Source: an uncultured Actinomycetes bacterium | Lineage (GTDB): Bacteria; Actinomycetota; Acidimicrobiia; Acidimicrobiales; Acidimicrobilacustridaceae | Length of the DNA: 64,000 nt | Reading direction: 5' to 3' | NCBI GenBank assembly: GCA_963702555.1 | Contig: CAVPCW010000011.1 | Span: forward strand, 499,753 to 563,752 | Shown here: one piece after another, positions 1,841-40,666 of the stretch | Layout of the letters: every line of letters starts with the position of its first letter | Position numbering within the stretch: the stretch's first letter is position 1 | Notes under the pieces: model-generated | What the model was told of the DNA's origin: nothing | The model's input: the letters and a program-made list of their open reading frames with translations, nothing else | Databases searched by the model: none | Translations under genes and position numbers: made by a program

Positions 1841-1857
1841 ATGACGTGAGTGTCAGA
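1841..1857. promoter_or_regulatory. Candidate operator box ATGACGTGAGTGTCAGA (TGAC-N6-GTCAGA)
   Basis: Lies 40 nt upstream of the SDR start at 1801. It matches the recurrent box family, and an extra GTCAGATC half-site copy follows at 1867-1874. Confidence 0.5.
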
Positions 1858-1901
1858 TCATAGGGGCGTCAGATCCTGCCCCGTGGGTCGAGATGCCTCG
1901 A

Positions 1902-2651
1902 TCAGCGTCCGGTCCACCGGGGCTCGCGCTTCTCCATGAACGCGGCGGCACCTTCGCGGGCGTCGGCGCTGCCGAAGACGCTCTGCATCTCGTCGGGTGA
2001 GGCCATGGCGTCGGGGGCGGCGGCGGCTCGGCGCATCAGCTTCTTGGTGAGCTGCACCCCGAGGGGCCCGTTGGCGGCGATCGTCTCGGCCAGCTCGAGC
2101 GCGACGGTCCTCAGCTCGTCGGCGGGGGCCACCCGGTTCACGAGGCCCAGGTGCTTCGCTCGTTCGGCGTCGATGTACTCCCCGGTGAGGCCGATCTCGA
2201 GGGCCAGTGCCATGGGGATCCGGGTGCTGAGCACGGTGCCCCCGCCGGCGGCGTAGAGCCCCCGCTTCACCTCGGGCAGCCCGAAGCGGGCATGGTCGGC
2301 GGCGACCACGAGGTCGCAGTTGAGGACCAGCTCGAAGCCCCCACCGACGGCGGCGCCGTTGACAGCGGCGACGATGGGCTTGGGGTAGGTGCCACTCATG
2401 AGGGCGCCGAAGGCGGGGCTGAGCTTCCCCGGGTCCTTGCCCTCTCCGAAGGCCTTGAGGTCCATCCCCGCGCAGAAGGCCTTCTCGCCGGCACCGGTGA
2501 GCACGACGACGCGGGCGTCGACGTCGTCGAGGCACTCCTGGAGGGCCACGCCCATCTCGGCCATCAGCTCGGGGCTGAGGGCATTGCGCGCCTCGGGACG
2601 GTTCAGGGTCAGGACCTCGACCGTTCCGATGCGTTCACGTTCGACCAACAC
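1902..2651 (-). CDS. Enoyl-CoA hydratase/isomerase (crotonase fold)
   Basis: 249-aa ORF. It shows VEVLTLNRPEARNAL, FCAGMDL and other crotonase hallmarks. Confidence 0.9.
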   Translation of the reverse strand: MLVERERIGTVEVLTLNRPEARNALSPELMAEMGVALQECLDDVDARVVVLTGAGEKAFCAGMDLKAFGEGKDPGKLSPAFGALMSGTYPKPIVAAVNGAAVGGGFELVLNCDLVVAADHARFGLPEVKRGLYAAGGGTVLSTRIPMALALEIGLTGEYIDAERAKHLGLVNRVAPADELRTVALELAETIAANGPLGVQLTKKLMRRAAAAPDAMASPDEMQSVFGSADAREGAAAFMEKREPRWTGR

Positions 2652-2772
2652 TGCCGTCCTCCTCGTTCTCGTCCTCGTCGACCGGTTCGGACGCGGGGTC
2701 GTCGGGCATCCCGTCGAACGTGGACGCCACCGGGGGCAGATGGATCCCGTCGGCGACGGTCACGGACCCACT

Positions 2773-2789
2773 TCTGACATTGGTGTCAT
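2773..2789. promoter_or_regulatory. Candidate operator box TCTGACATTGGTGTCAT
   Basis: Lies in the divergent region between the hydratase (start 2651) and the ACAD pair (start 2924). Inverted repeat of the TGAC-N6-GTCA family. Confidence 0.5.
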
Positions 2790-2861
2790 GTGGGCAGCGT
2801 AGCCATCGATCCCGGGGTGGCGGAGAGGGCGGCGAGTGAGGTGCGATGGCGGAGCGCGTAC

Positions 2862-2878
2862 CTGACACAGCTGTTAGG
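2862..2878. promoter_or_regulatory. Candidate operator box CTGACACAGCTGTTAGG
   Basis: Second box in the same divergent region, about 45 nt upstream of the ACAD start at 2924. Confidence 0.5.
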
Positions 2879-2923
2879 TTCTCGTTCCGCGCCAGGGGAC
2901 GTCGACGCTCCGGGCGGTCGAGC

Positions 2924-4069: not shown

Positions 4070-4115
4070 TGGCGGCAGACCACCTTCCGACCGAGACGAG
4101 GGAGAACCGGTGACG

Positions 4116-5387: not shown

Positions 5388-5437
5388 CCTGCCCGCCGTC
5401 GGTCCCTGGCCCGGCGTCACGGGACGGACGGTTTCGG

Positions 5438-6646
5438 TCAGACCTTGACGTGCTCCTTCACGCCCATGAGTCGGGCCAGGTTGCCGCCCATGATCTTGGC
5501 CTTGTCCGTTTCGGTGAACTCGCTCAGTTCGTCGACGAAGGAGATCGGGTCGGCCAGTCCCTCGGGGTGCGGGTAGTCGGAGCCGAAGATCACGTTGTCG
5601 ACGCCGATCAGGTCGGCCAGCCCCCTCGGGTCGTCCTCGTGGAACGGGTGCACGTAGACGCACCGCTTGAAGACCTCGACGGGATCCTCCTCGAAGCTGG
5701 TGGGGTTGAACTTGTACGCGTGCTCCATCGAGGAGATCAGCGGTCGCACCCAGCCCGAGCCGTTCTCCACGGGGGCGAGGCGGAGGTCCGGGAAGCGGCT
5801 CAGCATCCCGTGGCCGATGGCCGACGCGATGGTGTCGGAGATGGCCCGTCCCCCGCCGCCGGTGATGGCCGCGAAGCCCGAGCCGCCCTTGAAGGGGAGG
5901 AACTCCCCGCCGCGTACGCCCTCCCACTCGTTGATGTAGCGCTGGTAGCCGCTGTCGCTGGCGTGCATGCCGACGAGGATGCCCGCCTCCTGGACCTTCT
6001 CCCAGAACGGGTCGAACTCGGGAAGGGCGAACGATCGTGAGGTCTGGAACCCGGGTACGGGGGCCGGCCGCACGAGGATGACCCTCGCGCCGCGCGCGAG
6101 CACCCACTCGAGCTCCTCGATGGCCTTCTCGACGACCGGGAGGGTGATCACCGGCGTCGGGAAGATGCGGTCGTCGAAGTTGAAGGTCCACTGCTCGTAC
6201 ATCCACTGGTTCAGTGCGTGGACCACGGCGTGGATCGCCAGCGGATCGTCGCGCAGGCGTTCCTCCACGAGGCTGGCCAGCGTCGGCCACATGAGCGAAC
6301 GGTCGATGCCCAGCTCGTCCATCAACTCGATGCGCGGACCGGGCTCCCGGAACGCCGGCGGCGACTCGATGGCCTTGCCCATGATCTCCCGGCGGGACTT
6401 GCCCTCGGGGTTCCCGATGCGGAAGTACTCCTCCTGGGCTCCCGGAGCCGCCACCTTGGCGAAGGTGGGGTTGGGGATGTAGTCGCTGATCTGGCCCTTG
6501 ACCGTGATCTTGGTGCGGCCCTTCACCTCGACGTAGTCGATGACGCCCTTGTAGTCGTCCGCGATGTACTTGGTGAGCGCGTCCGGGGTCTCGTACATGT
6601 GGTTGTCGCAGTCGAAGACCGGGAAGTCGAGCTGGCGTGAGGGCAT
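5438..6646 (-). CDS. Amidohydrolase_2 family metal-dependent hydrolase/decarboxylase-like protein
   Basis: ORF 5438-6694; the internal ATG at 6646 has an AGGGA RBS. Motifs FDCDNHMYE near the N-terminus and FGSDYPHPEG near the C-terminus. Confidence 0.85.
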   Translation of the reverse strand: MPSRQLDFPVFDCDNHMYETPDALTKYIADDYKGVIDYVEVKGRTKITVKGQISDYIPNPTFAKVAAPGAQEEYFRIGNPEGKSRREIMGKAIESPPAFREPGPRIELMDELGIDRSLMWPTLASLVEERLRDDPLAIHAVVHALNQWMYEQWTFNFDDRIFPTPVITLPVVEKAIEELEWVLARGARVILVRPAPVPGFQTSRSFALPEFDPFWEKVQEAGILVGMHASDSGYQRYINEWEGVRGGEFLPFKGGSGFAAITGGGGRAISDTIASAIGHGMLSRFPDLRLAPVENGSGWVRPLISSMEHAYKFNPTSFEEDPVEVFKRCVYVHPFHEDDPRGLADLIGVDNVIFGSDYPHPEGLADPISFVDELSEFTETDKAKIMGGNLARLMGVKEHVKV

Positions 6647-6703
6647 GGCAAGGGTCCCTTCTCGTGATGGCGCCGTCGCGGTGGCGTTCGTCACGAAGTG
6701 TAG

Positions 6704-6720
6704 ATGACGTGGCTGTTAGA
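6704..6720. promoter_or_regulatory. Candidate operator box ATGACGTGGCTGTTAGA
   Basis: Lies in the divergent region between the amidohydrolase (6646) and hypothetical gene 6822. With its flank (GTAGATGACGTG.CTGT.AGA) it is almost identical to the box at 40650. Confidence 0.55.
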
Positions 6721-6747
6721 GAACACTACCGCGAGCCCCGGCCGATG

Positions 6748-6764
6748 TCTAACATCGGCGTCAT
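6748..6764. promoter_or_regulatory. Candidate operator box TCTAACATCGGCGTCAT
   Basis: Second box in the same divergent region, in opposite orientation. It shares the spacer ATCGGC with the box at 29266. Confidence 0.55.
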
Positions 6765-6821
6765 GGATTCCGAACGCCCGCAGTCCGGTGTGGCCGCTCG
6801 ACCGACCGCACCCGGTCATCG

Positions 6822-7802: not shown

Positions 7803-7819
7803 CCCGGCACGGGGGTGAT

Positions 7820-7836
7820 CTGACACCGACGTCAGC
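7820..7836. promoter_or_regulatory. Candidate operator box CTGACACCGACGTCAGC
   Basis: Lies 32 nt upstream of the ferredoxin ATG at 7868. Palindromic CTGAC-N6-GTCAG. Confidence 0.5.
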
Positions 7837-7867
7837 AAGAGCGGCTCCGGCGCGCTAGACAGGCGAG

Positions 7868-8062
7868 ATGCGAGTCGAGTTCGATCAAGAGGCCTGCACC
7901 GGTCATGGCCGGTGCTACGCCCTCGCTCCCGAGTTCTACGGCGCGGACGACGACGGCTACTGCGTGGACCCGAGCGGGGCCGTGCCCCCCGCGCTCGAGG
8001 CCGCGGCGCGCCGCGGCGCCTACAACTGCCCCGAGAACGCCATCACGATCGTCGAGGGTTAG
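7868..8062 (+). CDS. Small 3Fe-4S-type ferredoxin (P450 redox partner type)
   Basis: 64 aa. It has CTGHGRC ... NCP cluster ligands (CxxHxxC...CP), typical of actinobacterial P450-associated ferredoxins. Confidence 0.85.
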   Translation: MRVEFDQEACTGHGRCYALAPEFYGADDDGYCVDPSGAVPPALEAAARRGAYNCPENAITIVEG

Positions 8063-9357
8063 CGGGCGCGGGCCTCGGCCGATCGGGCGGGTTCGAGCCC
8101 CAGCAGTCCCCGGCGCACGATGAGACCGGCCGCGTCGACGGCCTGCTCCTCGGTGACGTACCCGAGCACCAGCATGCTGTAGGGAACCCTCTCGATGACC
8201 GACAGCAGCACGATGGCATCGACGGTCGAATCGCCGAAGCCGCGTCGGTTCACGATCCGCACCAGGCGGTCGAAGGCCACCGTGGCGATCCCGAGGGAGA
8301 ACTCCGCCAGCGCCGGATCGGATTGTCCGATCTCCTGCCAGGCGCTCAGGATGCCGCCGTTGTCGCTGTAGGTGGTGACCCACCGTTGCAGCCAGGAGCG
8401 AACGGCCGTCTCGCTCGCGTCGTCGGGGAAGTCGCCGAGCAGGTCGACCATCGCCGTCGCGGCGGTGGTGGCCAGCACCTGGAAGAGGTCGTCCTTGCTG
8501 TCGAAGTAGCGGTAGAAGCTGCCATGGGAGATGCCGGCCTCCTCGACGATGTCGTCGATGCGCGTCTCGTGGTAGCCGAGGATCGGCAGCACGGCACTCC
8601 CGGCCTGGAGCAGTTGGCCACGGGTCTGTTGGCCGCGTGGTCTCAGTGGCCTGGCCGCACGGTGATCCGGGGGCGACACCGGCCACTTCGGCACTCGCTT
8701 GGGCGGTGGCTTGACGACCGGTCCGACGTTGACGCCGGGGATCGTCCCGAACAGCAGTCGATGAAGCGACTGGGCGAGGCCATCGAGGAAGCGGCCGCGC
8801 GCGATCTGGCCGAGACCGAGACGCCAGTAGTGGATGGCCCTGAGCATGACCGAGACGGTGACGCTCGCCGTCGGTCGGCGGGCCACGTCGGGTCGATCGA
8901 GGTCCCGCAGGATCGCTTCACCGAGGCGCTCGCTGACGCTGCGCGACCCCTTCGCGGTGCGGGCCTGCTCGCGCATGGCCGCTTGGAAGGCGGCGAGGAG
9001 CGGGGCATAGGTGTCGCACAGGTCGACGACCTCGTCGAGCCAGACCCGCAAGGTGTCCACACCCGACGCATCCGGGTCGACGGTGCCCAGGCGATGGCTG
9101 ATGGCGTCCATCTCCTTCGCCATCTGGGCCGCGAGGCGCCAGAAGACGTCCTCCTTGCTGGCGAAGTACTGGTAGAACGCCGGTCGGGAGCAGCCGGCCG
9201 CCTTGGTGATGAGCTCGACGCGGGTTTCGTGGTAGCCCTTCTCGCCGAACACGTCGAGGGCGGCGTCGAGGATCCGCCGTTGGGTGGTCGCACCCCGTTC
9301 CCCGACGAGGGGGTTGTCCCCGAACGGCGAGCGCCGGGTCACGTCGACTGAATTCAC
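8059..9357 (-). CDS. Single-chain tandem TetR-family regulator (two HTH modules, ~432 aa; Mce3R-like architecture)
   Basis: This is the C-terminal part of the 1118-aa track ORF, with an in-frame GTG at 9357 (VNSVDVTRR). Two TetR_N modules are present: RRILDAALDVFGEKGYHETRVELITKAAGCSRPAFYQYFASKEDVF and RGQLLQAGSAVLPILGYHETRIDDIVEEAGISHGSFYRYFDSKDDLF. Confidence 0.8.
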   Translation of the reverse strand: MNSVDVTRRSPFGDNPLVGERGATTQRRILDAALDVFGEKGYHETRVELITKAAGCSRPAFYQYFASKEDVFWRLAAQMAKEMDAISHRLGTVDPDASGVDTLRVWLDEVVDLCDTYAPLLAAFQAAMREQARTAKGSRSVSERLGEAILRDLDRPDVARRPTASVTVSVMLRAIHYWRLGLGQIARGRFLDGLAQSLHRLLFGTIPGVNVGPVVKPPPKRVPKWPVSPPDHRAARPLRPRGQQTRGQLLQAGSAVLPILGYHETRIDDIVEEAGISHGSFYRYFDSKDDLFQVLATTAATAMVDLLGDFPDDASETAVRSWLQRWVTTYSDNGGILSAWQEIGQSDPALAEFSLGIATVAFDRLVRIVNRRGFGDSTVDAIVLLSVIERVPYSMLVLGYVTEEQAVDAAGLIVRRGLLGLEPARSAEARAR

Positions 9358-9434
9358 CGGGCGATCGTACCCGGGCCGAAACTGCAGCTCGGACGTCGGC
9401 GACCCTTCCTCGTCGTCGCGTCCGGCCGTCCGGT

Positions 9435-10175
9435 TCACGACGCGGGTGGTCGATCGATCACGGCGACGTCGTCGATGTGCGCCGGTGACTCGAGCACGTG
9501 CAGCACGGTGGCGGCGACGTCGTCGGGGCTCATGATGCCTTCGGAGCCGAGGACCCCCGAGGCCAGCCAACGTTCGGTGGCCGCCTCGATGGCGTCGGGG
9601 TCCCACGTCGTCGCGAAGTCGGTGTCGCCGGTGTTGCCGACCACGACCCGCGTGACGAGCAGGCCAGGGAACTCGAGGGGGAGGCATCGCATCAGCCCGT
9701 CGAGGGCGAACTTGGAGGTGGTGTAGAGGGCCAGGTCCGGGAACGGCCGGCGCACCGCCTTCGACGAGAGGATCACCAGCTGGCCTCCGCTGGCCACCAG
9801 GTGGGGGGCCGCTGCCGTGCTGACGAGGGCCGCGCCGATCACGTTGGTGTCGAAGACCTGGTGCCAGTCGGCCTGGGTGGCGTCGGCCATCGCCAGCAGC
9901 GGCGACATGCCGACGGTGTGCACGACGGCGTCGAGTCCTCCGAGCGCGGCGACGGCGCCATCGACCACCGCGGAGACGGAGGTCTCGTCGCGGACGTCGC
10001 CCGGAAGGGCGACCGTCCCGGGATGGGCGGCGACCAACTCGGCCAGTCGCTCCTCGCTGCGGGCGCTCACCGCCACCCTGGCCCCCCGGGAGGCGGCCAG
10101 GCGGGCCACCGCGGCGCCGATGCCGGACGAGGCCCCGACGACGAGGATGCGCTTGCCCGCAAGGATGTCGCTCAT
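9435..10175 (-). CDS. Short-chain dehydrogenase/reductase
   Basis: ORF 9435-10217; ATG 10175 is preceded by GGGGGAG. Starts MSDILAGKRILVVGASSGIG. It lies directly upstream of the TetR gene on the same strand. Confidence 0.85.
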   Translation of the reverse strand: MSDILAGKRILVVGASSGIGAAVARLAASRGARVAVSARSEERLAELVAAHPGTVALPGDVRDETSVSAVVDGAVAALGGLDAVVHTVGMSPLLAMADATQADWHQVFDTNVIGAALVSTAAAPHLVASGGQLVILSSKAVRRPFPDLALYTTSKFALDGLMRCLPLEFPGLLVTRVVVGNTGDTDFATTWDPDAIEAATERWLASGVLGSEGIMSPDDVAATVLHVLESPAHIDDVAVIDRPPAS

Positions 10176-10237
10176 CGAACTCCCCCAACTGAAGAAATCT
10201 GGTGGCTCGGCTTGCATCCCGCTCGCCGATCACTAAT

Positions 10238-10254
10238 CTAACACTTCTGTCACT
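10238..10254. promoter_or_regulatory. Candidate operator box TCTAACACTTCTGTCAC
   Basis: Lies in the relatively AT-rich divergent region between SDR-TetR (start 10175) and the amidohydrolase operon (start 10279). Confidence 0.55.
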
Positions 10255-10278
10255 TACCGAGTCGTGGGGGGCCATGAG

Positions 10279-11562
10279 ATGCAGGCAGAAGACCTGATCC
10301 TCGTCAGCGTCGACGACCACGTCGTCGAACCGCCGGACATGTTCGAGGGGCGTCTGTCGGCCAAGGCCGCGGCGCGCGCCCCGTTCGTGAAACGACTGGA
10401 CGACGGGCGCGACGTGTGGATGTTCGAGGGCAACGCCATGCCCAACGTCGGGCTCAACGCCGTGTCCGGTCGGGTGCCCGAGGAGTGGGGACTCGACGCG
10501 CTCTCCTTCGAGCAGATGCGCCCTGGCTGCTACGACATCCACGAGCGCATCCGCGACATGAACGTCAACGGCGTCCTCGGCTCCTTGAACTTCCCGAGCC
10601 TCACCGGGTTCGCCGGTCAGCTCTTCGCCACCTGCGACGACAGGGCCATCGGCCTGGAGCTCCTCCAGGCCTACAACGACTGGCACATCGACGAGTGGTG
10701 CGGCACCTATCCGGGGCGCATGATCCCCCTCACCATCCCACCGCTCTGGGACCCCGAGCTGATGGCGGCCGAGATCCGGCGCACCGCCGCGAAGGGGAGC
10801 CATGCCGTCACCTTCTCCGAGAACCCCGAGAAGCTCGGCTACCCCAGCTTCCACAGCGACCACTGGGACCCGTTCTGGCAGGCCTGTTGTGACACCGACA
10901 CCGTGGTGTGCATGCACATCGGGTCGTCCTCGACGCTGGTGTCCACGTCCTCCGATGCCCCTCTCGACACCCTCATCACCCTCCAGCCCATGAACATCGT
11001 CCTGTGCGCCGCCGACCTGCTGTGGTCGCCGGTGCTGCGCAAGTTCGACAAGCTGCGCGTCGCCCTCTCCGAAGGCGGCATCGGGTGGGTGCCCTACTTC
11101 CTGGAGCGGGTCGACTACACGTACCAGCACCACCACACCTGGACCAACCAGGACTTCGGCGGCAAGTTGCCGAGCCAGGTGTTCAACGAGCACATCCTCA
11201 CCTGCTTCATCGACGACGCCGCCGGCATGGAGGTGCGCCACCACCTCAACGGCGACCACATCATGTGGGAGTGCGACTATCCCCACTCCGACTCGACCTG
11301 GCCGAATGCACCCGAGATGGCATGGAAGTACCTGCACGGCCTGCCCGAGGACGAGATCCACAAGATCACCCACCTGAACGCCATGCGGGCCTTCTCGTTC
11401 GATGCCTTCTCCCACGTCCCGCGTGAGGAGGCGACCGCCGGCGCCCTGCGAGCCCAGGCCGCGGACGTCGACACGACGCTCGTCAGCTACGGGACCGGCA
11501 AGTTCCAGGACGAGGGCCTGGTGACCACCATGTCCCTCGTGCAGCGGATGGCGAACCGGTAG
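10279..11562 (+). CDS. Amidohydrolase_2 family protein
   Basis: ORF 10264-11562; ATG 10279 lies behind a G-run RBS. Motifs VSVDDHVVEPPDMF and WECDYPHSDSTWP. Confidence 0.85.
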   Translation: MQAEDLILVSVDDHVVEPPDMFEGRLSAKAAARAPFVKRLDDGRDVWMFEGNAMPNVGLNAVSGRVPEEWGLDALSFEQMRPGCYDIHERIRDMNVNGVLGSLNFPSLTGFAGQLFATCDDRAIGLELLQAYNDWHIDEWCGTYPGRMIPLTIPPLWDPELMAAEIRRTAAKGSHAVTFSENPEKLGYPSFHSDHWDPFWQACCDTDTVVCMHIGSSSTLVSTSSDAPLDTLITLQPMNIVLCAADLLWSPVLRKFDKLRVALSEGGIGWVPYFLERVDYTYQHHHTWTNQDFGGKLPSQVFNEHILTCFIDDAAGMEVRHHLNGDHIMWECDYPHSDSTWPNAPEMAWKYLHGLPEDEIHKITHLNAMRAFSFDAFSHVPREEATAGALRAQAADVDTTLVSYGTGKFQDEGLVTTMSLVQRMANR

Positions 11563-11632
11563 GCGACGCCGGGTCGGCCGTCGCGGCCCGAACCCGTCCG
11601 CTGCCGCCCCGCCAGATCAAGGACCACGACCG

Positions 11633-13224: not shown

Positions 13225-13236
13225 GGTCGGGGTCGA

Positions 13237-15005: not shown

Positions 15006-15044
15006 CGTTTCCGTCGGCGGGAGCGGCGGCAGGCACCCTCACGG

Positions 15045-15061
15045 CTGACGGACCGGTCAGA
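15045..15061. other. Box-like palindrome CTGACGGACCGGTCAGA at a convergent gene junction
   Basis: It matches the operator pattern but lies between two gene ends and overlaps the ligase stop codon at 15057-15059. It could instead act as a small terminator hairpin. Confidence 0.25.
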
Positions 15062-16628
15062 TCGAGCGGTCGTGGCCCTCCCAGTACGGGGCACGCAGCA
15101 CTCGCTTCTGCAGCTTGCCGCTCGGCAGGCGAGGCAGGTGCTCGACGACGTCGATGCGGCGGGGCATCTTGAAACGGGCCACCCGCCCGGCACAGTGCTC
15201 CAGGATGGCCGCGGTGGTGGCGTCGCCGGGCTCGACGCCCTCGGCCAACTCGACGATGGCCAGCACCGACTCGCCGCGATCCTCGTCGGGGACGCCGATC
15301 ACGGCGGCGTCACCGACCAGCGGACACTCCAGGAGGGCGCTCTCGACCTCGGCGGGGTAGATGTTGACACCGGCCGAGATGATCATGTCGACGCTGCGGT
15401 CCTTGAGGAAGAGGTAGCCGTCCTCGTCGAGCAGGCCGACATCGCCGAGCGTGACCCAGTCACCCCGCCGCATCCGGGTCGTCTTCTCGGGGTCCTTGAA
15501 GTACTCGGCGACCGGGGCGTTCCGGTTCTCGATGTAGATCGTGCCGGTCTCGCCGGGACCGCACTCGACGTCGTCCTCACCCACGACGTGGACGGTGACG
15601 CCGTGGATCGCCCGCCCGACGGTGCCGGGCTTCTGGAGCCAGCGCCGCGGGGTGGCGATGGTCGCGACCGACTCCGTGCCGCCGTAGGTCTCGTAGACGA
15701 CCGGGCCGAACCACTCCATGAACCGGGTCTTCACGGGCACCGGGCAGGGGGCACCTGTGTGCATGACGCTGGTGACGCTGCTCACGTCGTAGCGGGCCCG
15801 CACGTCGGCGGGAAGGGCGAGCAGGCGGTGGAACATCGTCGGCACCATCTGGGTGCTCGTCACCCGGTGCTCCTGGACGAGGGCGAGGCAGGCCTCGGGC
15901 TCCCAGCGGTCCATGAGCACGATGGTGTTGCCCGCGTGCAGGCTGCTCGTGGCTGATGACGACGGCCCTGCGTGGTAGAGCGGGCCGCACACCAGGTGCA
16001 CGCCCGGCCCGGGCTCGATTCCGAAGCCGGTGCAGTAGACGTGAGCGGTGCGGCCGAGCACGACGTCGGCCTCCTCCTCGGGGAGCGGGCGGCGCACGCC
16101 CTTCGGCCGCCCGGTGGTTCCCGAGGTGTACATCATCGTCGTCCCGGCCCCGAGGGCCGGCGGGAGGTGCGGCGCGGCGCGGCCGCGGGTGACCAGCTCG
16201 CTCAGTGGCGGCAGGTCGGTGGCGTCGGGGTCGGCGAAGCACATGCGTGGGTCGAGCGAGGCCTCCCGGATGGCCGGTCGGCACAGCTCGGCGGTCGAGG
16301 CGTGCACGATCAGCGCGCGTGCGTCCGAGTCCGCAACGATGTGGGCGACCTCCGGCGCGGCGAGGTGGGTGTTGACGGGGACGACGTACAGCCCGACCCG
16401 CATCCCCGCGAGGTGGGCGACGAACCAGTTCGTCACGTTCGGCATCACGACGGCCAGGCCGTCGCCGCGCCGGAGCCCGAGATCCCGCAGGCCACGCGCC
16501 ACGGCATCGGACACCTCGTGCATCTCACCGAAGGTCGTGACGGTTCCGTTGCCGTCGATCACCGCGGGTCGGTCCGGGTCGGCGGCGGCCACGCTCCAGA
16601 ACCCGCCCGGCCCGACAGCGTCGGTCAT
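15057..16628 (-). CDS. AMP-dependent acyl-CoA synthetase (FadD-like)
   Basis: 523 aa. Motifs YTSGTTGRPKGV and YGGTE, with a C-terminal PRLPSGK. Confidence 0.9.
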   Translation of the reverse strand: MTDAVGPGGFWSVAAADPDRPAVIDGNGTVTTFGEMHEVSDAVARGLRDLGLRRGDGLAVVMPNVTNWFVAHLAGMRVGLYVVPVNTHLAAPEVAHIVADSDARALIVHASTAELCRPAIREASLDPRMCFADPDATDLPPLSELVTRGRAAPHLPPALGAGTTMMYTSGTTGRPKGVRRPLPEEEADVVLGRTAHVYCTGFGIEPGPGVHLVCGPLYHAGPSSSATSSLHAGNTIVLMDRWEPEACLALVQEHRVTSTQMVPTMFHRLLALPADVRARYDVSSVTSVMHTGAPCPVPVKTRFMEWFGPVVYETYGGTESVATIATPRRWLQKPGTVGRAIHGVTVHVVGEDDVECGPGETGTIYIENRNAPVAEYFKDPEKTTRMRRGDWVTLGDVGLLDEDGYLFLKDRSVDMIISAGVNIYPAEVESALLECPLVGDAAVIGVPDEDRGESVLAIVELAEGVEPGDATTAAILEHCAGRVARFKMPRRIDVVEHLPRLPSGKLQKRVLRAPYWEGHDRSI

Positions 16629-16641
16629 CGCCGAGGCCCGA

Positions 16642-17538: not shown

Positions 17539-17594
17539 CGTGTCCTGCCTCCTCGTCGGGCGAGGCCGAGGGTAGCGAAGAAAGCACCCGGCAT

Positions 17595-17611
17595 CTGACG
17601 CGTGCGTCAGC
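17595..17611. promoter_or_regulatory. Candidate operator box CTGACGCGTGCGTCAGC
   Basis: Near-perfect palindrome in the divergent region between TesB-FadD (start 17538) and the ABC importer operon (start 17648). Confidence 0.5.
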
Positions 17612-17647
17612 TATGGTGACCCAACGGTTGGGGAACCAGGGGAAAAC

Positions 17648-19012: not shown

Positions 19013-19062
19013 GCGTGCTGCGTTGACGGCCCGACGACGTCCGAACCTGAGCTGAGGATCCG

Positions 19063-22711: not shown

Positions 22712-22714
22712 GCC

Positions 22715-26610: not shown

Positions 26611-26639
26611 CCGAAAACCTATCGCCATTAGGGTTTCGG
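26611..26639. promoter_or_regulatory. Imperfect 11-bp inverted repeat CCGAAAACCTA-N7-TAGGGTTTCGG (a second operator type)
   Basis: Lies in the divergent region between the dehydratase (start 26569) and the hydratase operon (start 26664). One mismatch between the arms. It differs from the TGAC box. Confidence 0.4.
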
Positions 26640-26663
26640 CGACGCTGCCGAGAGGATCTGCGA

Positions 26664-27467
26664 GTGCCAGACGCTGCCGCATCCACGCTGATCGCCGAGC
26701 AGGCGACGGGGGTGTTGACCCTCACCATCAACCGACCCGAGCGGGGAAACGCCCTCGACGGACCGACGGTGGACCTGTTCATCGACGTCCTCCAGGATCT
26801 GGCCGCCGATCCGGGGGAGGTCCGTGCCGTGCTGCTGCGCAGCGAGGGCAGTCACTTCTGCACGGGCGCGGACATCGGAGGCGCGGATCGCGGGCAGAGA
26901 GGAACCGTCGGGCACATGGTTCGCGCCCTCGGGCGGGGGCCTCACCGGCTGATCGAACTGCTGTGGGACTGCCGCCTGCCGGTGGTGGCCGAGTTGACGG
27001 GCCGGTCCTCGGGCCTCGGTCTCCACGTCGCTCTGACCGCAGATGTCACCGTGGCGGCCGAGAGCGCCACGTTCGCGGAGCCGTTCGTCGACCGCGGGTT
27101 CAGCGTCGACAGTGGCGGCTCGTGGCTCCTGCCCCGCTTCGTTGGCCTCACCCGCGCCAAGCGGATGCTCTACACGTCCGAGGTGGTCGACGCGTCGACC
27201 GCCCTGGAGTGGGGGCTGGTGTCCGAGGTGGTGCCCGACGCCGGGGTCGCCACGCGCGCCCAGGGGGCCGCCCAGAGCCTCGCCCGGCAGGCCACCTTCG
27301 CCCTCGGTGTCACCAAGGGATTGCTCCACCGTCACCTCGACGGCGACCTGGGCGCCGCGGTGCAGGCGGAGGCCGAAGCCATCGAGCTGACGATCCGCAG
27401 TGACGACTTCAAGGAAGGGATCCGCGCCTTCTCGGAGAAGCGTCCCCCCGACTTCAGGGGGCACTGA
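26664..27467 (+). CDS. Enoyl-CoA hydratase/isomerase
   Basis: 267 aa. GTG start behind AGAGGA. Motifs LTLTINRPERGNAL and FCTGADI. Confidence 0.85.
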   Translation: MPDAAASTLIAEQATGVLTLTINRPERGNALDGPTVDLFIDVLQDLAADPGEVRAVLLRSEGSHFCTGADIGGADRGQRGTVGHMVRALGRGPHRLIELLWDCRLPVVAELTGRSSGLGLHVALTADVTVAAESATFAEPFVDRGFSVDSGGSWLLPRFVGLTRAKRMLYTSEVVDASTALEWGLVSEVVPDAGVATRAQGAAQSLARQATFALGVTKGLLHRHLDGDLGAAVQAEAEAIELTIRSDDFKEGIRAFSEKRPPDFRGH

Positions 27468-27531: not shown

Positions 27532-28311
27532 ATGAGCAGCATCACGGTCAGCCTCGATGACGGCATCGCGACCGTGGTGTTCGATCGGCCGCCGGTCAAC
27601 GCCATCGACCGGCCGTCGATGGTCGAGCTGGGGGAGATCTTCGCCTCGTTCGAGGCCGACCGGAACGTCCGGGTGGCCATCTTCACCTCGGCCGGTCGGC
27701 GGGCGTTCATCGCCGGCGTCGATCTGGGTACCGTCGGGGGTGGCGAGTCGGATGAGGAGGATCCGGGTGCGCTGCTGGATCCCGGTCGTGTGGCTCGCGA
27801 TGCCATGTGGGCGATCACCGACTGCGCGGTGCCGGTGATCGCGGCGGTCAACGGGCCCGCCATCGGGGCGGGACTCGCGTTCGCCGCGTGCTGCGACATG
27901 ATCGTCGCCAGCGACAACGCCACCTTCGGGACCACGGAGATCAACGTCGGGCTCCTCGGTGCCAGTGCCCACCTCTCCACCCTGGTCGGTCGGCACAAGG
28001 CGAGGGAGATGTTCTTCACCGGCGAGCTGGTGCCGGCCGCCGATCTCCATCGCATCGGTGCCGTGCGGGCGGTGGTGGAACACGACCAGCTCATGCCCAC
28101 GGCACTGGAACTCGCTCGTGCCCTCGCCGACAAGAGCCCGATCGCCTTGCGCATGGCCAAGGCGTCGATGAACCAGGTCGAGGGCCTCCCCCTGAAGGAG
28201 GCCTACCGGATCGAACAGACCTACACGGACAGACTGGCCCGCTTCGAGGACTCGTCGGAAGCGCGAGAGGCCTTCTTCGAGAAGCGAGAACCGCACTGGA
28301 AGTGGCGTTGA
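27532..28311 (+). CDS. Enoyl-CoA hydratase/isomerase
   Basis: 259 aa. Motifs VVFDRPPVNAI, FIAGVDL and a C-terminal FFEKREPHWKWR. Confidence 0.9.
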   Translation: MSSITVSLDDGIATVVFDRPPVNAIDRPSMVELGEIFASFEADRNVRVAIFTSAGRRAFIAGVDLGTVGGGESDEEDPGALLDPGRVARDAMWAITDCAVPVIAAVNGPAIGAGLAFAACCDMIVASDNATFGTTEINVGLLGASAHLSTLVGRHKAREMFFTGELVPAADLHRIGAVRAVVEHDQLMPTALELARALADKSPIALRMAKASMNQVEGLPLKEAYRIEQTYTDRLARFEDSSEAREAFFEKREPHWKWR

Positions 28312-28335: not shown

Positions 28336-29340
28336 ATGGCCGAGGGTGACCAGCGACTGCTCACGCCGGCAGACGACGACTTCCATGCCCCGGTGGCGGA
28401 CGAGTGGTGGTCCCACGAGACGTGCTGGTTCTGGTTCTCGGTGCCCGAGAGGGCGTTGGGGGCCTGGATCTACAACTGGATCCGACCGAACATCGGCGTC
28501 ACCGGTGGGGGGGTGTCGGTCTGGGATGACAGCACCTCCTCGCACTGGGAGGCGCCGTACCACTCGAACTACTCCAACCTGCGTCTGCCCGCGCCGCGTG
28601 ATCTCCGCCGGATCACCTTCCCGACGGGGGTGTCGGTGGAGATGCTGGAACCCCTGAGCCGCTACCGCCTCTCCTTCGCCGACGAGCCGATGATCTCCTT
28701 CGACCTGGAGTTCGCCGCGGTGATGGAACCCTGGGTGAGCGTGGTCGAGGTCGACGGGGTTCCGCGGCCCAACCACTTCGACCAGTTCGGACGGGTCACC
28801 GGATCCCTCGACCTGCACGGGGAGCAGATCGAGGTCGACTGCCTCGCCATACGCGACCGCACGTGGACGATTCGATCCGAACGGTGGAGGCGCGGGGGCG
28901 GGTACGGCTACACGAGCGCGGCGGCCGACTCCGGCGAGTCGTTCCTCGTCATCGGCGACGAGGAGTCGGTTCACGGCTTCGTGGTGCTCGATGGGCGGAG
29001 GTCGGGGCTGGTTGCCGGTGGTCGGCGGGTCGAACGCCATCCGGAGCACGGGTATGTCACCCGGGTGATGATCGACGCCGCGGACACCGAGGGCAGGACG
29101 CTGGTGGCCGAGGGTCGGTCGATCAGTCGGATCGCCATGCCCGTCCCGGGCGTCCACGGAGTGGTGTGGGCCAGCGTCGTGGCCTGGACGATCAACGGTG
29201 TCGCGGCATGGGGGGACGATCAGGAGCCGTGGCCGGTCACGGGCTGGTCGAGGCTGCCGTCGAAACTGACATCGGCGTCAGGTAGTCGCTACGCTCTTCC
29301 CAGCGGACGTACCGGGGGGTCGTGGTGCAGCTCGGGTTGA
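28336..29340 (+). CDS. Hypothetical Trp-rich protein, 334 aa, embedded in the hydratase-ACAD operon
   Basis: Good G/C third-position bias. The N-terminus reads EWWSHETCWFWFSVPERALGAWIYNWIRPN. I could assign no enzyme family with confidence. Its 3' end overlaps the next ACAD start and contains a box. Confidence 0.65.
   Translation: MAEGDQRLLTPADDDFHAPVADEWWSHETCWFWFSVPERALGAWIYNWIRPNIGVTGGGVSVWDDSTSSHWEAPYHSNYSNLRLPAPRDLRRITFPTGVSVEMLEPLSRYRLSFADEPMISFDLEFAAVMEPWVSVVEVDGVPRPNHFDQFGRVTGSLDLHGEQIEVDCLAIRDRTWTIRSERWRRGGGYGYTSAAADSGESFLVIGDEESVHGFVVLDGRRSGLVAGGRRVERHPEHGYVTRVMIDAADTEGRTLVAEGRSISRIAMPVPGVHGVVWASVVAWTINGVAAWGDDQEPWPVTGWSRLPSKLTSASGSRYALPSGRTGGSWCSSG
29266..29282. promoter_or_regulatory. 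Candidate operator box CTGACATCGGCGTCAGG
   Basis: Lies 40 nt upstream of the ACAD GTG at 29322, inside the 3' end of the preceding ORF. Confidence 0.4.
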
Positions 29341-32937: not shown

Positions 32938-32995
32938 GCATCGGCCGCCTCGGTCGGACGGGGGTCGGGCCGACGGACACCGATCCGTCGGCCCG

Positions 32996-33012
32996 GCTAA
33001 CATCCATGTCAG
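32996..33012. promoter_or_regulatory. Candidate operator box GCTAACATCCATGTCAG
   Basis: Lies about 25 nt upstream of the SDR start at 33035/33041. Confidence 0.45.
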
Positions 33013-33034
33013 TTTCGACTGGGGCCGAGAGGGA

Positions 33035-33860: not shown

Positions 33861-33884
33861 GACCTGTCGCCCAGGCGACGGGAG

Positions 33885-35108: not shown

Positions 35109-35130
35109 TGTGCTTCGTTCCCCTTGGTCG

Positions 35131-35147
35131 ATGACGGGGTCGGCAGA
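35131..35147. promoter_or_regulatory. Degenerate box ATGACGGGGTCGGCAGA (one mismatch to GTCAGA)
   Basis: Lies 23 nt upstream of the CoA-transferase start and just after the ALDH stop. Confidence 0.2.
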
Positions 35148-35152
35148 CTGGC

Positions 35153-37922: not shown

Positions 37923-37963
37923 GGATCCTCCTCGGATGGGTGCCGAGCCCTGTCTAGCGCAAA

Positions 37964-37980
37964 TCTAACGTCAGTGTCAT
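37964..37980. promoter_or_regulatory. Candidate operator box TCTAACGTCAGTGTCAT
   Basis: Lies in the divergent region between the P450-ALDH-CoA-transferase operon (start 37922) and the acyl-CoA ligase (start 38038). Confidence 0.55.
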
Positions 37981-38037
37981 GGAGAAGGGCGGGGCGCTAA
38001 GGTCCGCCTGGCTCGCCGGCATCGAACTCGGGGGAGT

Positions 38038-39657
38038 GTGATGTTCGACCTCGATGACCATGGGCTGGTCGCCTCGGCCACTCCACCACGTGACATCGGT
38101 GGACCTCGATCGGTGGCGCGCCTGATCGACGGAGCTCGCGCCGTCGAACCGGACCGGGTGCTGCTCGTCGGCCGCCACGATCGCCACACGGCGGCCGACC
38201 TCGACGAGCTGAGCACCCGCGTGGCGGCGATGCTGCACCAGCTCGGTGTGCGGCCCGGGGCCCGGGTGGCCGCGGCCCTGCCCAACGACGACGCCATCGT
38301 GGTGGCGTTCCTCGGCGCGATGAAGGCCGGGGCGATCTGGGTCGGGTTGAACCGGGCACTGGCCGCGCCCGAGAAGGCGTACATGCTGCGCGATGCCCAG
38401 GTCTCGGTCCTGTTCGCCGACCCGGAGACAGCCGATCAGCTCGTCGAGGCGCGCCGCGAGCTGCCCGACCTCGATCGGGTCGTCGTGGTGGCCCCGGACG
38501 ACGATGATCGTGACGAGTGGACGCAGCTCCTGCGTTCGGCTCCCGTCATGGAGCTCGCCGACGTGGAACCCGGCTGGCCCGCCGCGATCGCCTACACGAG
38601 CGGCACGACCGGGTTCCCGAAGGGGGCCGTCCACACTCATCACAACCTGTTGCTCCCCGGCAAGGTCGGACGGCGACGACTGCTCCCCCCGGACCCGGCC
38701 CATCGACCGGTCATGGGGGTGGCATTGCCCCTCACCATCCTCAACCTCATGGTGCTCGGTCCGATCGCCGCCTTCCAGAGCGGCACGCCGGTCGTGGCCA
38801 TGGACCGCATCGACGCCGTGGGAATGGCCGAGTGGATCGAGCGGGAGCGGATCACGACGTTCGCCGCGGTCCCGGCCATGGTGCACGACCTGCTGACCCA
38901 CCCGGACGTCAACGATGAGATGCTCCGCAGCATCGAGGCCATCGGCGTCGGCGGCGCCGACATGCCGGAGGCCTTCCGGCGGATGTACGAGGAGCGATTC
39001 GGTCGAAGGGTGGGCACCGGCTACGGCCTGACCGAAGCACCGACGAGCGTCACCATGGAGGACGTCGCCCTACCGCCGGTGCCGGGGACGTGCGGCCGGG
39101 CGCTGCCCCACATCCGGATCCAGATCGTCGACGGGGCCGGCGCCGAGCTGCCTTCTGGTGAGCCCGGTGAGGTGTGCATCGGCCCCGCGCTCGAGGGAGA
39201 CCTCGCCGACGTCTACCGCCCCATGCTCGGCTACTGGAACCGGCCGGCCGAGAGCCGTGAGGCCCTCCGAGGGGGCGTGCTCCACACCAACGACGTCGGG
39301 TACCTCGACGACGACGGCAACCTCTTCATCAAGGACCGTCGCAACGACCTCATCGTGCGGGGCGGAGCCAACGTCTATCCCGCCGAGGTGGAGCGAGTGC
39401 TGCACGACGAGCCGGCGGTCGCGGCGTGCGCGGTGATCGGCCGGCCCGACGAGCGCCTGGGGGAGCGGGTGGTGGCATTCGTCGAGCTCGTTCCCGGGAC
39501 CGAGCTCGACCCCGAGGCGTTGCTCGAGCGTTGTCGGGCGAACCTGGCCCGCTACAAGGTGCCGGAGTCGATCACCGTGGTCGAGCGCTTCGACCGCACG
39601 CCGATGGGCAAGATCCGCAAGACCACGCTGCGCGAGCGGGTCGCCGACCAGGCGTGA
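38038..39657 (+). CDS. AMP-dependent acyl-CoA synthetase
   Basis: 539 aa. Motifs YTSGTTGFPKGA and GYGLTE, with a C-terminal PMGKIRK. The start is GTG 38038 or ATG 38041, behind GGGGAG. Confidence 0.9.
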   Translation: MMFDLDDHGLVASATPPRDIGGPRSVARLIDGARAVEPDRVLLVGRHDRHTAADLDELSTRVAAMLHQLGVRPGARVAAALPNDDAIVVAFLGAMKAGAIWVGLNRALAAPEKAYMLRDAQVSVLFADPETADQLVEARRELPDLDRVVVVAPDDDDRDEWTQLLRSAPVMELADVEPGWPAAIAYTSGTTGFPKGAVHTHHNLLLPGKVGRRRLLPPDPAHRPVMGVALPLTILNLMVLGPIAAFQSGTPVVAMDRIDAVGMAEWIERERITTFAAVPAMVHDLLTHPDVNDEMLRSIEAIGVGGADMPEAFRRMYEERFGRRVGTGYGLTEAPTSVTMEDVALPPVPGTCGRALPHIRIQIVDGAGAELPSGEPGEVCIGPALEGDLADVYRPMLGYWNRPAESREALRGGVLHTNDVGYLDDDGNLFIKDRRNDLIVRGGANVYPAEVERVLHDEPAVAACAVIGRPDERLGERVVAFVELVPGTELDPEALLERCRANLARYKVPESITVVERFDRTPMGKIRKTTLRERVADQA

Positions 39658-39694
39658 TCGGCGACCCTTCTCGGAGCCGACTCGGCCGCGGTGA

Positions 39695-40597
39695 CTAGGC
39701 CGGCGCAGCGGCGCGAGCGGTGGTCTTCTCGGCCGGCACGACCGGCGCAGCGTCTTTCCAGGGGGCGACGCCGTCGGCGGGCTGGGCCGCCGGGAAGCGG
39801 TCGTCATGTACCTCCGCCCAGTGGGAGTGGTTGAGCTGGTGGATCGTGAAGCACACGTTGAGGGCGTTGTGGAAGCCCTGGTTGTCGACGGTCTGGTTGA
39901 CGGACTCCTTGATCATGAGCGCGGTCATCGTCGGCAGCTCGGCGATCCGACGCGCCAACTCGTTGGTCCGCGCCGCGAGGTCGTCGCGCGGGAAGACCTT
40001 CGACACCATGCCGAGGCGGTGGGCCTCGTCGATGTCGAGGCTGTCCCCGGTCAGGAGGAGCTCCTTGGCCTTGCGGGGCCCGAACTCCCACGGGTGGGCG
40101 AAGTACTCGAGCCCGCACATGCCGAGCCGGGTGCCCACGACATCGGCGAAGGTGACGTCGTCGGCGCCGACGATCAGGTCGCAGGCCCACATCAACATCA
40201 GCCCGGCCCCGTAGACCTTGCCGTGGACCTCGGCGATGGTGATCTTGCGCAGGTTCCGCCACCGCAGCGTGTTCTGGAAGTAGTAGTGCCACTCGCCGAG
40301 CATCCGGGCCTCGGCTCCCTTGCGGGTGGCGCCGTTGATCTTGAACGTCGGATGGTTGGCGTACTCGTCACGAGCCTGGGCCGAGCCCATGTCGTGCCCC
40401 GACGAGAAGAGCGTCCCCTCGCCGCCCAGGATCACCACCCGCACCTGATCGTCGGCCTGGGCGCGCATGAACGCGTCGTCGAGCTCGACGAGCATGCCGC
40501 GGTTCTGGGCGTTCCTCGCCTCGGGTCGGTCGAGCATGATTCGGGCGATGAGGCCGTCGTCGAGGGTCTCGTAGCTGATGAACTCGTACTCGGGCAT
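39695..40597 (-). CDS. Enoyl-CoA hydratase/isomerase family protein (~300 aa)
   Basis: ORF 39695-40645; ATG 40597 lies behind GAGGAG (MPEYEFISYETLDDGLIARIMLDRPEARNA). Confidence 0.85.
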   Translation of the reverse strand: MPEYEFISYETLDDGLIARIMLDRPEARNAQNRGMLVELDDAFMRAQADDQVRVVILGGEGTLFSSGHDMGSAQARDEYANHPTFKINGATRKGAEARMLGEWHYYFQNTLRWRNLRKITIAEVHGKVYGAGLMLMWACDLIVGADDVTFADVVGTRLGMCGLEYFAHPWEFGPRKAKELLLTGDSLDIDEAHRLGMVSKVFPRDDLAARTNELARRIAELPTMTALMIKESVNQTVDNQGFHNALNVCFTIHQLNHSHWAEVHDDRFPAAQPADGVAPWKDAAPVVPAEKTTARAAAPA

Positions 40598-40649
40598 CGG
40601 GGTGCTCCTCTGGCGATGGTCTCCGACGGGGAGTGATGGCGCCACGTAG

Positions 40650-40666
40650 ATGACGTGTCTGTCAGA
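40650..40666. promoter_or_regulatory. Candidate operator box ATGACGTGTCTGTCAGA
   Basis: Lies 53 nt upstream of the hydratase start at 40597. It shares the extended flank GTAGATGACGTG with the box at 6704. Confidence 0.55.

Follow-up and report, generated by a model that had tools for sequence, protein, structure and literature searches.

This study concerns a window of 64,000 nucleotides from an uncultured Actinomycetes bacterium of the Acidimicrobiales (assembly GCA_963702555.1, contig CAVPCW010000011.1, positions 499,753 to 563,752), and in particular a short DNA box that recurs in a catabolic gene island of this window and the tandem TetR-family regulator gene that the island carries. The boxed region extends from 1.8 to 40.7 kb and contains 36 genes. 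These encode three or four acyl-coenzyme A (CoA) synthetases, eight acyl-CoA dehydrogenases (ACADs), five enoyl-CoA hydratases (ECHs), one MaoC-type hydratase, a DUF35/Ltp pair, a family III CoA-transferase, an aldehyde dehydrogenase (ALDH), a TesB thioesterase, short-chain dehydrogenases (SDRs), two cytochromes P450 (P450s), a ferredoxin, a LivK-type ABC importer and two proteins named 'amidohydrolase 2'. The tandem TetR gene is the sole regulator gene between 1.8 and 40.7 kb. The left limit of the boxed region lies at about 1.8 kb, and the right limit of the island is a methylenetetrahydrofolate reductase (MTHFR) gene.

Genes were called with a codon-usage model trained on the window and named from Pfam; six-frame open reading frame (ORF) lists are useless at 70% G+C. 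The chance level of the box pattern was determined with dinucleotide-preserving shuffles (n = 100). The window was searched with a 20-bp symmetric position weight matrix (PWM) built from the window sites, and a second time with an asymmetric PWM whose training sites came exclusively from other genomes. For the comparative set, one genome per species was scanned, and 80 loci with an orthologue of the tandem TetR (40–69% identity) were obtained, each consisting of the TetR gene plus up to 10 kb per side. Asymmetry of the box was assessed with an orientation-mixture model fitted by expectation-maximisation to 182 distinct sites, and sites simulated from the symmetric model served as the null.

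The pattern TGACNNNNNNGTYA had 20 strand matches in the window, located at 13 distinct places (1842, 2775, 2863, 6705, 6750, 7821, 10239, 15046, 17596, 29267, 32998, 37966 and 40651); the shuffle mean was 2.66 and the maximum 9, and none of the 100 shuffles reached 20. The symmetric PWM retrieved 12 sites at 19.5–25.8 bits, followed by runners-up at 13.1 bits (1855) and 12.9 bits (15043). The identical 12 sites were retrieved by the PWM from other genomes at 20.8–37.1 bits, the next match scoring 7.3 bits, and no score with this PWM exceeded 3.6 bits beyond 41 kb in the window. Position 1855 was rejected as an extra site, as its 13.1 bits with the symmetric PWM fell to 2.2 bits with the other-genome PWM. 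Of the first 41 kb, 1964 bases (4.8%) are non-coding, and 11 of the 12 sites lay within them (binomial P = 3.5e-14). The twelfth is coding, at the 3' end of the DUF7065 gene and 48 bp before the ACAD start at 29322, and is a putative internal promoter/operator inside coding sequence. This gene belongs to the DUF7065/Rv3169 family; the box occupies part of its last 80 bases, and its stop overlaps the next start by 19 bp.

A preliminary description of the window, made from the letters, had reported a 17-bp inverted repeat occurring 13 times. Its box coordinates were confirmed, with an offset of one or two bases due to flanking bases that the reader had included, and its placement of 12 sites in 10 regulatory regions was correct by gene calls and site positions. 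The pattern does occur at 13 places; by the PWM from other genomes the real sites number 12, not 13 or 14. The copies given at 15045 (a convergent junction) and 35131 (a 'one-mismatch copy') are not sites, because they scored 5.4 and 5.5 bits with this PWM, and the element itself has to be redrawn as a 20-bp asymmetric pseudo-palindrome. The estimate of one or two chance occurrences was about right in view of the shuffle mean, and the statement that no copy was seen beyond 41 kb was borne out. The extended match between the boxes at 6704 and 40650 (GTAGATGACGTG.CTGT.AGA) is present, and the gene labels match Pfam. Both the comparison of intergenic with coding DNA, run on the window, and the conservation of the box in related genomes came out as that description had anticipated. 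The features are listed in Table 1.

Table 1. Boxes, rejected copies, principal genes and box-less genes of the island. Scores are those of the PWM trained on other genomes unless stated otherwise.
Feature	Coordinates	Strand	Score (bits)	Setting
Box 1	1839..1858	-	20.8	Intergenic, before SDR 1037-1801(-), then FadD 2-979(-) downstream; 47.5 bp from SDR start; B half gene-proximal
Box 2	2772..2791	+	20.9	Divergent region, ECH 1902-2651(-) / ACAD pair 2924-5387(+)
Box 3	2860..2879	-	26.9	Divergent region with Box 2, 88 bp apart; 54.5 bp from ACAD start; TAGGTT in A half, directed towards ACAD gene
Box 4	6702..6721	-	27.0	Divergent region, amidohydrolase-fold 5438-6646(-) / hypothetical 6822-7802(+); TACACT adjoins B half, directed towards 5438-6646
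Box 5	6747..6766	+	21.0	Divergent region with Box 4, 45 bp apart
Box 6	7818..7837	+	25.3	Before ferredoxin 7868-8062(+) (Pfam Fer4_15), 40.5 bp from start; B half gene-proximal
Box 7	10236..10255	+	37.1	Strongest, ATCTAACACTTCTGTCACTT; SDR-tandem TetR operon (10175 back to 8059) / DitZ-like-DUF35-Ltp-ACAD-PNPOx operon (10264-15005); A half on TetR side, TAGATT within it on TetR-reading strand
Box 8	17593..17612	+	22.0	TesB-FadD (17538 back to 15057) / ABC-P450 operon (17648-23908); TATGGT adjoins B half, directed towards ABC operon
Box 9	29264..29283	+	25.7	Inside DUF7065 28336-29340(+), ahead of three ACADs 29322-32937(+)
Box 10	32995..33014	+	23.8	Before SDR 33035-33991(+); B half gene-proximal
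Box 11	37963..37982	+	25.9	P450-ALDH-CoA-transferase (37922 back to 33885) / FadD 38038-39657(+); TAGATT in A half, directed towards P450 operon
Box 12	40648..40667	-	30.3	60 bp before ECH 39695-40597(-), right island edge; MTHFR gene 40771-41640(+) on the other side, 113 bp off
Excluded copy	15043..15062	.	5.4	Convergent junction; 12.9 bits with symmetric PWM; G at position 13, where Y is required
Excluded copy	35129..35148	.	5.5	4.3 bits with symmetric PWM
Tandem TetR-family regulator	8059..9438	-		Proposed box reader
Predicted DitZ-family amidohydrolase-related dinuclear oxygenase	10264..11562	+		Most conserved box target
Second amidohydrolase-fold gene	5438..6646	-		Second most conserved target
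ABC-P450 operon	17648..23908			ABC binding protein, permease, two ATPases, P450
APH	23939..25276			Box-less
MaoC	25289..26569			Box-less
ECH	26664..27467			Box-less
ECH	27532..28311			Box-less
DUF7065	28336..29340	+		Box-less promoter

The box was widely conserved around orthologues of the tandem TetR gene. Most of the 80 loci are labelled Acidimicrobiales, Iamiaceae, Microthrixaceae, Ilumatobacteraceae or Acidimicrobiaceae, and the rest carry broader actinobacterial labels or, in two cases, a doubtful Bifidobacterium label. The window-derived PWM gave 195 matches in 1.29 Mb of the relatives' loci against 5 in shuffles, and the asymmetric PWM gave 209 sites in 1.36 Mb (80 loci and the window) against 0 in shuffles. 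A box was found no more than 300 bp upstream of the TetR gene in 65 of the 80 loci, and all 65 of these sites share one orientation relative to the gene. In 8 further loci, as in the window, the TetR gene comes second or third in its operon, whose promoter carries the box; a box therefore marks the promoter of the TetR gene or of its operon in 73 of the 80. The box was also kept in loci with 50–59% G+C (L012, L032 and L074) and survives a 20-point drop in G+C (L012 and L074). The tandem TetR proteins of L012 (G+C 0.50; 5 boxes) and L074 (G+C 0.54; 2 boxes) are 40–50% identical to the Acidimicrobiales one, and these two genomes are labelled Bifidobacterium breve and Bifidobacterium sp., respectively; the labels look wrong, through mis-binning or because a low-GC Acidimicrobiia lineage is concerned.

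The genes most often adjacent to a box in the other genomes were the tandem TetR (56) and orthologues of the amidohydrolase encoded from 10264 (56; mean identity 76%), followed by orthologues of the amidohydrolase encoded from 5438 (35; mean identity 70%) and then by ACADs, the ABC binding protein, P450, CoA-transferase, DUF35, SDR and ferredoxin. An orthologous TetR/amidohydrolase divergent pair with a box was present in most of the 80 genomes. Because these two genes are the most frequent box neighbours, the putative ancestral core of the system is the TetR/amidohydrolase divergent pair sharing one box, of which the window would be an expanded version. The gene at 6822-7802(+) lies behind two boxes and encodes 326 amino acids (aa) without a Pfam or NCBIfam match; an orthologue with 66% identity is box-adjacent in three genomes, so that its product is a candidate conserved regulon member of unknown function.

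Aligned sites defined the box as an asymmetric pseudo-palindrome of 20 bp, 5'-ATCTAACA-N4-YGTCA-SNT-3'. The consensus of the 182 distinct sites is 5'-A-T-C-T-(A 79%/G 21%)-A-C-(A/G)-N4-(C/T)-G-T-C-A-(G/C/T)-N-T-3', with an A half reading TCT(A/G)ACA and a B half reading NNTGAC(G/A) on the other strand; one helical turn (10 bp) separates the half-site cores. The asymmetric model gained 343 nats over the symmetric model, against 22 ± 4 (maximum 36) under the null. The gain was 243 (null 10.5 ± 3.2) for the 20-bp core alone and 165 (null 10.7 ± 3.1) after removal of the TetR-upstream sites (n = 117). C3 is shared by 181 of the 182 sites and T2 by 148 of them, with no preference at the mirror positions of the B half (C3 equivalent, 78/182). 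The B half always read TGAC, and TAAC in both halves occurred in 0 of 182 sites against 28.5 expected (P = 3.5e-14). The 182 sites are thus built of two non-equivalent half-sites. Conservation spanned 20–22 bp without extended repeat flanks.

An overlapping -10 hexamer was considered as the sole cause of this asymmetry, the reverse complement of the A half being TGTTAGATT, and was rejected. In the 34 sites without a gene on the A side, positions 2, 3 and 5 were still asymmetric (C3 in 33 of 34) and position 0, which completes the hexamer, was not; because the core asymmetry persists in these sites, hexamers do not explain it. The asymmetry fits a single-chain pseudo-dimer with two different helix-turn-helix (HTH) motifs, like Mce3R. 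Paired boxes are 45 and 88 bp apart in the window and 16–72 bp apart elsewhere, without fixed spacing or orientation. Pairs 53–55 bp apart recur in L002, L006 and L058; a fixed Mce3R-like pair spacing (53 bp) was ruled out by the overall range of 16–88 bp.

The tandem TetR may start at ATG 9357 as in its homologues (432 aa) or at GTG 9438, overlapping the SDR stop codon (459 aa). It matched PF00440 with E 7.2e-32 over two stretches, and TetR-family proteins were numerous among its PDB matches, which places it in the TetR family. Its halves (residues 1-211 and 236-432) are 28% identical over 187 aa (E 3e-18), and because they align with the ligand domains included, the protein is an internal duplication. 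Two complete modules of a TetR-family regulator are present in the one polypeptide, as in a duplicated member of the family, and homologues of 420–460 aa have both. HTH 1 reads GCSRPAFYQYF and HTH 2 SHGSFYRYF. The recognition helices are each invariant in 28 homologues (48–85% identity), yet unlike each other, with the consensus G-C-S-R-P-(A)-F-Y-Q-Y-F in half 1 and S-H-G-(S)-F-Y-(R)-Y-F in half 2. Among 1.84 billion representatives, 151 clusters were retrieved at E <= 1e-30, most of them full-length (420–460 aa); these homologues are mostly unnamed metagenome proteins, and those with a labelled source come from Acidimicrobiales metagenome-assembled genomes. An AlphaFold2 (AF2) single-chain model (pLDDT 87.9, pTM 0.86) was all-helical, with nine helices per half and one short C-terminal helix, and its best and only full-length match in the PDB was Mce3R bound to DNA (9b7y_A, 439 columns). 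From this model we infer that the tandem TetR folds as a single-chain pseudo-dimer.

The geometry of the sites relates them to promoters. Within ±70 bp no other AT-rich patch is seen besides the box, whose A half has an AT fraction of 0.72 against a background of 0.32. On the A side, a -10-like TANNNT occupies positions 5 to 0 of the bottom strand (TAGATT type) and reads away from the A half; on the B side, it occupies positions 20 to 25 of the top strand and reads away from the B half. The A-side hexamer accompanied 9 of the 14 sites whose gene lies on the A side only and 7 of the 34 whose gene lies on the B side only (p = 0.006); for the B-side hexamer the counts were 0 of 14 and 15 of 34, respectively (p = 0.002). 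At the TetR promoter, the A-side hexamer is directed towards the TetR gene in 58 of 65 sites. In the window, direction-matched hexamers accompany the boxes at 2860, 6702, 10236, 17593 and 37963. On the B side, box centres peak 20–40 bp ahead of the start codon, and in one-sided sites the B half is proximal in 26 of 36 (p = 0.011), all four such window sites included.

These results make it very probable that the 12 boxes are the operators of the island's own tandem TetR repressor. We propose that one protein molecule would occupy each box, placing its two unlike HTH motifs (SRPAFYQYF and SHGSFYRYF) in successive major grooves. The bound repressor would block RNA polymerase at the -10 region (promoter occlusion), as is proposed because TANNNT hexamers overlap the A half or abut the B half according to gene direction. 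Some 31 of the island's 36 genes would be silenced in this way, the repressor's own operon included (autoregulation). By analogy with KstR, KstR2 and FadR-type TetRs, the inducer would be a pathway intermediate, probably the CoA thioester of a terpenoid- or steroid-like substrate, which would bind in a single ligand pocket and release the protein from DNA. We infer binding, repression, the stoichiometry of one molecule per box, the inducer and the substrate from these sequence patterns.

Other readings of the box were weighed against this proposal. It seems improbable that the box is read by a different regulator and that the tandem TetR merely adjoins one target. Candidates would be a global regulator encoded elsewhere or an ordinary homodimeric TetR of 237 aa, for which a gene indeed lies just outside the window (13188-13901 of L081, in which the same DNA is extended; about 4 kb left of window position 1); moreover, boxes adjoin the DitZ-like gene just as often as the tandem TetR gene, whose own adjacency could be a by-product. 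A homodimer, however, should read a symmetric site, yet the halves differ systematically, and no box was found in the 6.4 kb of L081 left of the window, around the ordinary TetR gene. Where an SDR gene precedes the tandem TetR gene (8 loci and the window), the promoter of their joint operon carries the box, and the single orientation of the 65 direct sites, 58 of them with a hexamer towards TetR, is what autoregulation predicts. The other regulators of the window, IclR 49643-50638(-) and MarR 56099-56548(+), are outside the island and have no box nearby. A little less probable again is that the tandem TetR binds the box as an activator or dual regulator. Some TetR-family proteins do activate, such as FasR and DhaS (both among the weak NCBIfam matches), and some boxes lie 100–200 bp from the nearest start codon, farther than simple occlusion leads one to expect. 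Most characterised TetR-family proteins, including Mce3R, KstR and BkaR, are nevertheless repressors (PMC11667970, PMC3920632), and the overlap or abutment of boxes with direction-matched hexamers and the peak before start codons have the geometry of occlusion and differ from that of an activator site lying upstream.

The inverted-repeat look, the many copies and the position between genes would also suit a structural repeat without a dedicated regulator, such as a repetitive extragenic palindrome (REP), a small mobile element, or an RNA or DNA hairpin in a 5' untranslated region or terminator, and one terminator-like pattern overlaps the box at 17593. We consider this very unlikely, as base identity is kept and pairing is not: positions 8 and 13 show no covariation (odds ratio 0.99, p = 1.0), an A.C mismatch stands at positions 5/16 of 144 of the 182 sites, and pairing is mostly absent at 2/19 and 3/18. 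The sites precede genes: among the 172 with a confident orientation, 161 are intergenic, 118 of these between divergent genes and 2 between convergent genes. Terminator-like matches were fewer than in shuffles (2 against 4.4), Rfam gave no match in the window, and repeat flanks are lacking; a hairpin, REP or RNA element was ruled out by the pairing counts and the 0 Rfam matches. Base identity without compensatory pairing, promoter placement and co-inheritance with the regulator are the properties of a transcription-factor operator. That the recurrence is chance, or a by-product of AT-rich promoters in a GC-rich genome, is hardly credible. Many boxes do contain -10-like hexamers, and promoters are the AT-rich parts of such genomes; the shuffles of the window and of the 1.36 Mb speak against it, as do the intergenic regions beyond 41 kb, which have no box. 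The invariant C3, T4, A6, C7, G14, T15, C16 and A17 are not positions of a -10 hexamer, and they stay invariant in the 34 sites without an A-side gene.

Several points weigh against the boxes being operators of the tandem TetR repressor. Seven of the 80 loci have no box at the TetR promoter, and co-localisation cannot fully separate the TetR from its divergent DitZ-like neighbour, the two being box-adjacent equally often (56 each). The predicted structure fits Mce3R loosely (TM 0.51/0.56, root-mean-square deviation 9.1 Å). Taken by themselves, the 12 window sites show a non-significant trend towards asymmetry (cross-validated gain of 14.8 nats), and the 182 comparative sites that bring the effect out are not independent, because many are orthologous. 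The box scan was confined to ±10 kb around TetR orthologues. Gene starts came from our own crude caller, so that distances to start codons are approximate; the -10 assignment was made from TANNNT statistics alone, and a sigma-70 consensus scan of positions 1-20000, which is uninformative for this phylum, returned 0 promoters. The whole account was drawn from sequence analysis.

The view of the preliminary description that one repressor controls essentially the whole island was supported in the computational tests for the larger part of it. Box-headed transcription units hold about 31 of the 36 genes, and the ABC importer, both P450s and the ferredoxin, which had been named as members, are within such units. 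Five genes stand behind box-less promoters. The divergent promoter region 26570-26663, the one such region of the island that lacks a box, had no PWM match (best score -13.4 bits), and therefore the MaoC-APH and ECH-ECH-DUF7065 genes are not covered; these five must be controlled differently or be constitutive.

The most conserved target gives an indication of the pathway. The product of 10264-11562 matched DitZ (PDB 8uyr) with E 8.7e-102 over residues 6-406, that is, over its full length, and PtmU3 with E 1.2e-36. The product of 5438-6646 matched the uncharacterised PDB entry 4dzi (E 1.5e-85) and, more distantly, PtmU3 (E 4.1e-17). DitZ and PtmU3, both diiron C-H hydroxylases, belong to the amidohydrolase-related dinuclear oxygenase superfamily, and DitZ is described as a diterpenoid hydroxylase (PMC13154177). 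The two 'amidohydrolase' genes therefore probably encode oxygenases rather than hydrolases, 5438-6646 being only distantly related to the superfamily. NCBIfam had no model for either amidohydrolase-fold protein or for the product of 6822-7802. The best PDB match of the P450s was a reconstructed CYP125 ancestor, followed by many unrelated P450s; because many P450s match equally well, these enzymes do not settle the substrate. No steroid ring-opening genes of the HsaA-D or KshA type were seen among the gene annotations of the window. Because the DitZ and PtmU3 matches occur together with CoA-dependent beta-oxidation genes and the Ltp/DUF35 pair, the gene content points to the breakdown of a bulky, terpenoid- or steroid-like carboxylic acid in the form of a CoA ester.

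To our knowledge, Mce3R of Mycobacterium tuberculosis (Rv1963c; PDB 9b7y) is the only characterised duplicated TetR-family repressor. The tandem TetR resembles it in having two TetR modules per chain, with two HTH motifs and two ligand-domain halves. The two HTH motifs are non-identical and the operator asymmetric in both cases, the pseudo-dimer fold being predicted here. Mce3R is a single-chain pseudo-dimer with a 25-bp non-palindromic asymmetric operator (PMC11667970). It controls genes of lipid- and cholesterol-related oxidation, and its operators are sometimes paired tens of bp apart (PMC11667970). The similarity between the two proteins amounts to E 1.5e-7 by phmmer, where Mce3R ranked 5th, and 1.6e-12 by profile, where it ranked 2nd over an HTH-only stretch. 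Because this is no better than the similarity to ordinary single-domain TetRs, the tandem TetR is not an orthologue of Mce3R, and it may be an independent duplication. The operators are unrelated, the Mce3R probe sequences being without this box. In contrast to the Mce3R operator, the half-sites here share the core T-R-A-C-R and form a 20-bp near-palindrome, which is in keeping with two similar but non-identical heads. The regulon within one locus is larger here (12 operators). Homodimerisation and DNA looping have been seen for Mce3R; the spacing of box pairs varies here from 16 to 88 bp.

KstR and KstR2 of mycobacteria and rhodococci are TetR-type repressors of cholesterol catabolic regulons, induced by CoA-thioester intermediates, and act as homodimers on symmetric 14-bp palindromes, TnnAACnnGTTnnA and AnCAAGnnCTTGnT. 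As predicted here, a single TetR would likewise control its own gene and have many operators across a large catabolic island; the likeness extends to islands composed of acyl-CoA synthetases, ACADs, hydratases, Ltp/DUF35 and P450s, and to an operator motif found through its recurrence between genes. The system described here differs in its tandem protein and in its 20-bp asymmetric box with other spacing. A KstR regulon with its operator was rejected: the NCBIfam KstR model scored 36.8 bits against a cut-off of 280, and the length, spacing and symmetry of the box are different.

BkaR/Fad35R (Rv2506) is an autoregulated mycobacterial TetR whose gene diverges from a beta-oxidation-type operon; the intergenic region between the two holds two operator copies (PMC3920632). 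It is a homodimer that reads the symmetric core GTTA-N-T-N4-A-N-TAAC and controls a regulon of about 10 genes, and its motif was likewise found by comparing orthologous promoters (PMC3920632). The half-sites of BkaR face the opposite way from those of the present box. More generally, the box matched neither the Mce3R and BkaR operators as given in the papers nor the known operators of KstR, KstR2, McbR, AmtR and LexA. In engineered single-chain TetR (scTetR), two TetR modules are joined in one chain, and heads of different specificity read an asymmetric tet operator. Those are laboratory constructs, whereas the present protein is natural and conserved across a bacterial order, with about 200 natural operators. 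By analogy, the system resembles the working principle of Mce3R combined with the regulon logic of KstR and BkaR.

We give somewhat better than even odds to the fuller proposition that this natural single-chain TetR, whose diverged heads would be fixed on TCTAACA and NNTGACG and frozen across the Acidimicrobiales, is the master switch of an undescribed terpenoid- or steroid-acid pathway with the DitZ-like diiron oxygenase and the 4dzi-like relative as its top targets. If this is true, the approximately 200 natural operators form a specificity map that shows how DNA recognition is divided between the two halves of a duplicated repressor. The protein would be a natural counterpart to Mce3R with a short, well-defined and nearly symmetric operator, in which the divergence of specificity after duplication is directly testable, as is the assignment of heads to half-sites. 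The analysis also provides a predicted regulon for the Acidimicrobiales, a mostly uncultured order of Actinobacteria that is abundant in soil, water and activated sludge and barely studied genetically. The prediction consists of a 20-bp operator model, with 12 sites and roughly 31 genes in this window and roughly 200 sites in the 80 other genomes. The box marks a conserved gene set around two amidohydrolase-fold proteins, one of them DitZ-like and belonging to a newly recognised dinuclear oxygenase superfamily, and this suggests that Acidimicrobiales break down diterpenoid- or steroid-like acids. An orthogonal switch for high-GC hosts could be built from the repressor and its operator.

Further genes were observed around the island. 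In L081, the gene of the ordinary TetR is adjoined by an SDR, ACAD fragments and an ACAD-APH fusion; because this 6.4-kb stretch is without a box, it seems to form a regulatory unit of its own next to the island. To the right, a second catabolic-looking cluster at 47885-53511 is box-free and encodes a 703-aa FAD_binding_2 protein (fumarate reductase/KstD-like), a luciferase-like monooxygenase and two SDRs; the IclR call overlaps the gene of the FAD_binding_2 protein by about 350 bp. A 436-aa ORF at 60683-61993(-) matches P450 only below threshold (21.4 bits, cut-off 22.8) and adjoins succinate dehydrogenase/fumarate reductase-like genes at 62098-64000(-). Just outside the island, a pair of fused ABC exporter genes, each with ABC_membrane plus ABC_tran, lies at 42694-46427(+) and is directly preceded by a META-domain lipoprotein-like gene at 41716-42669(-).

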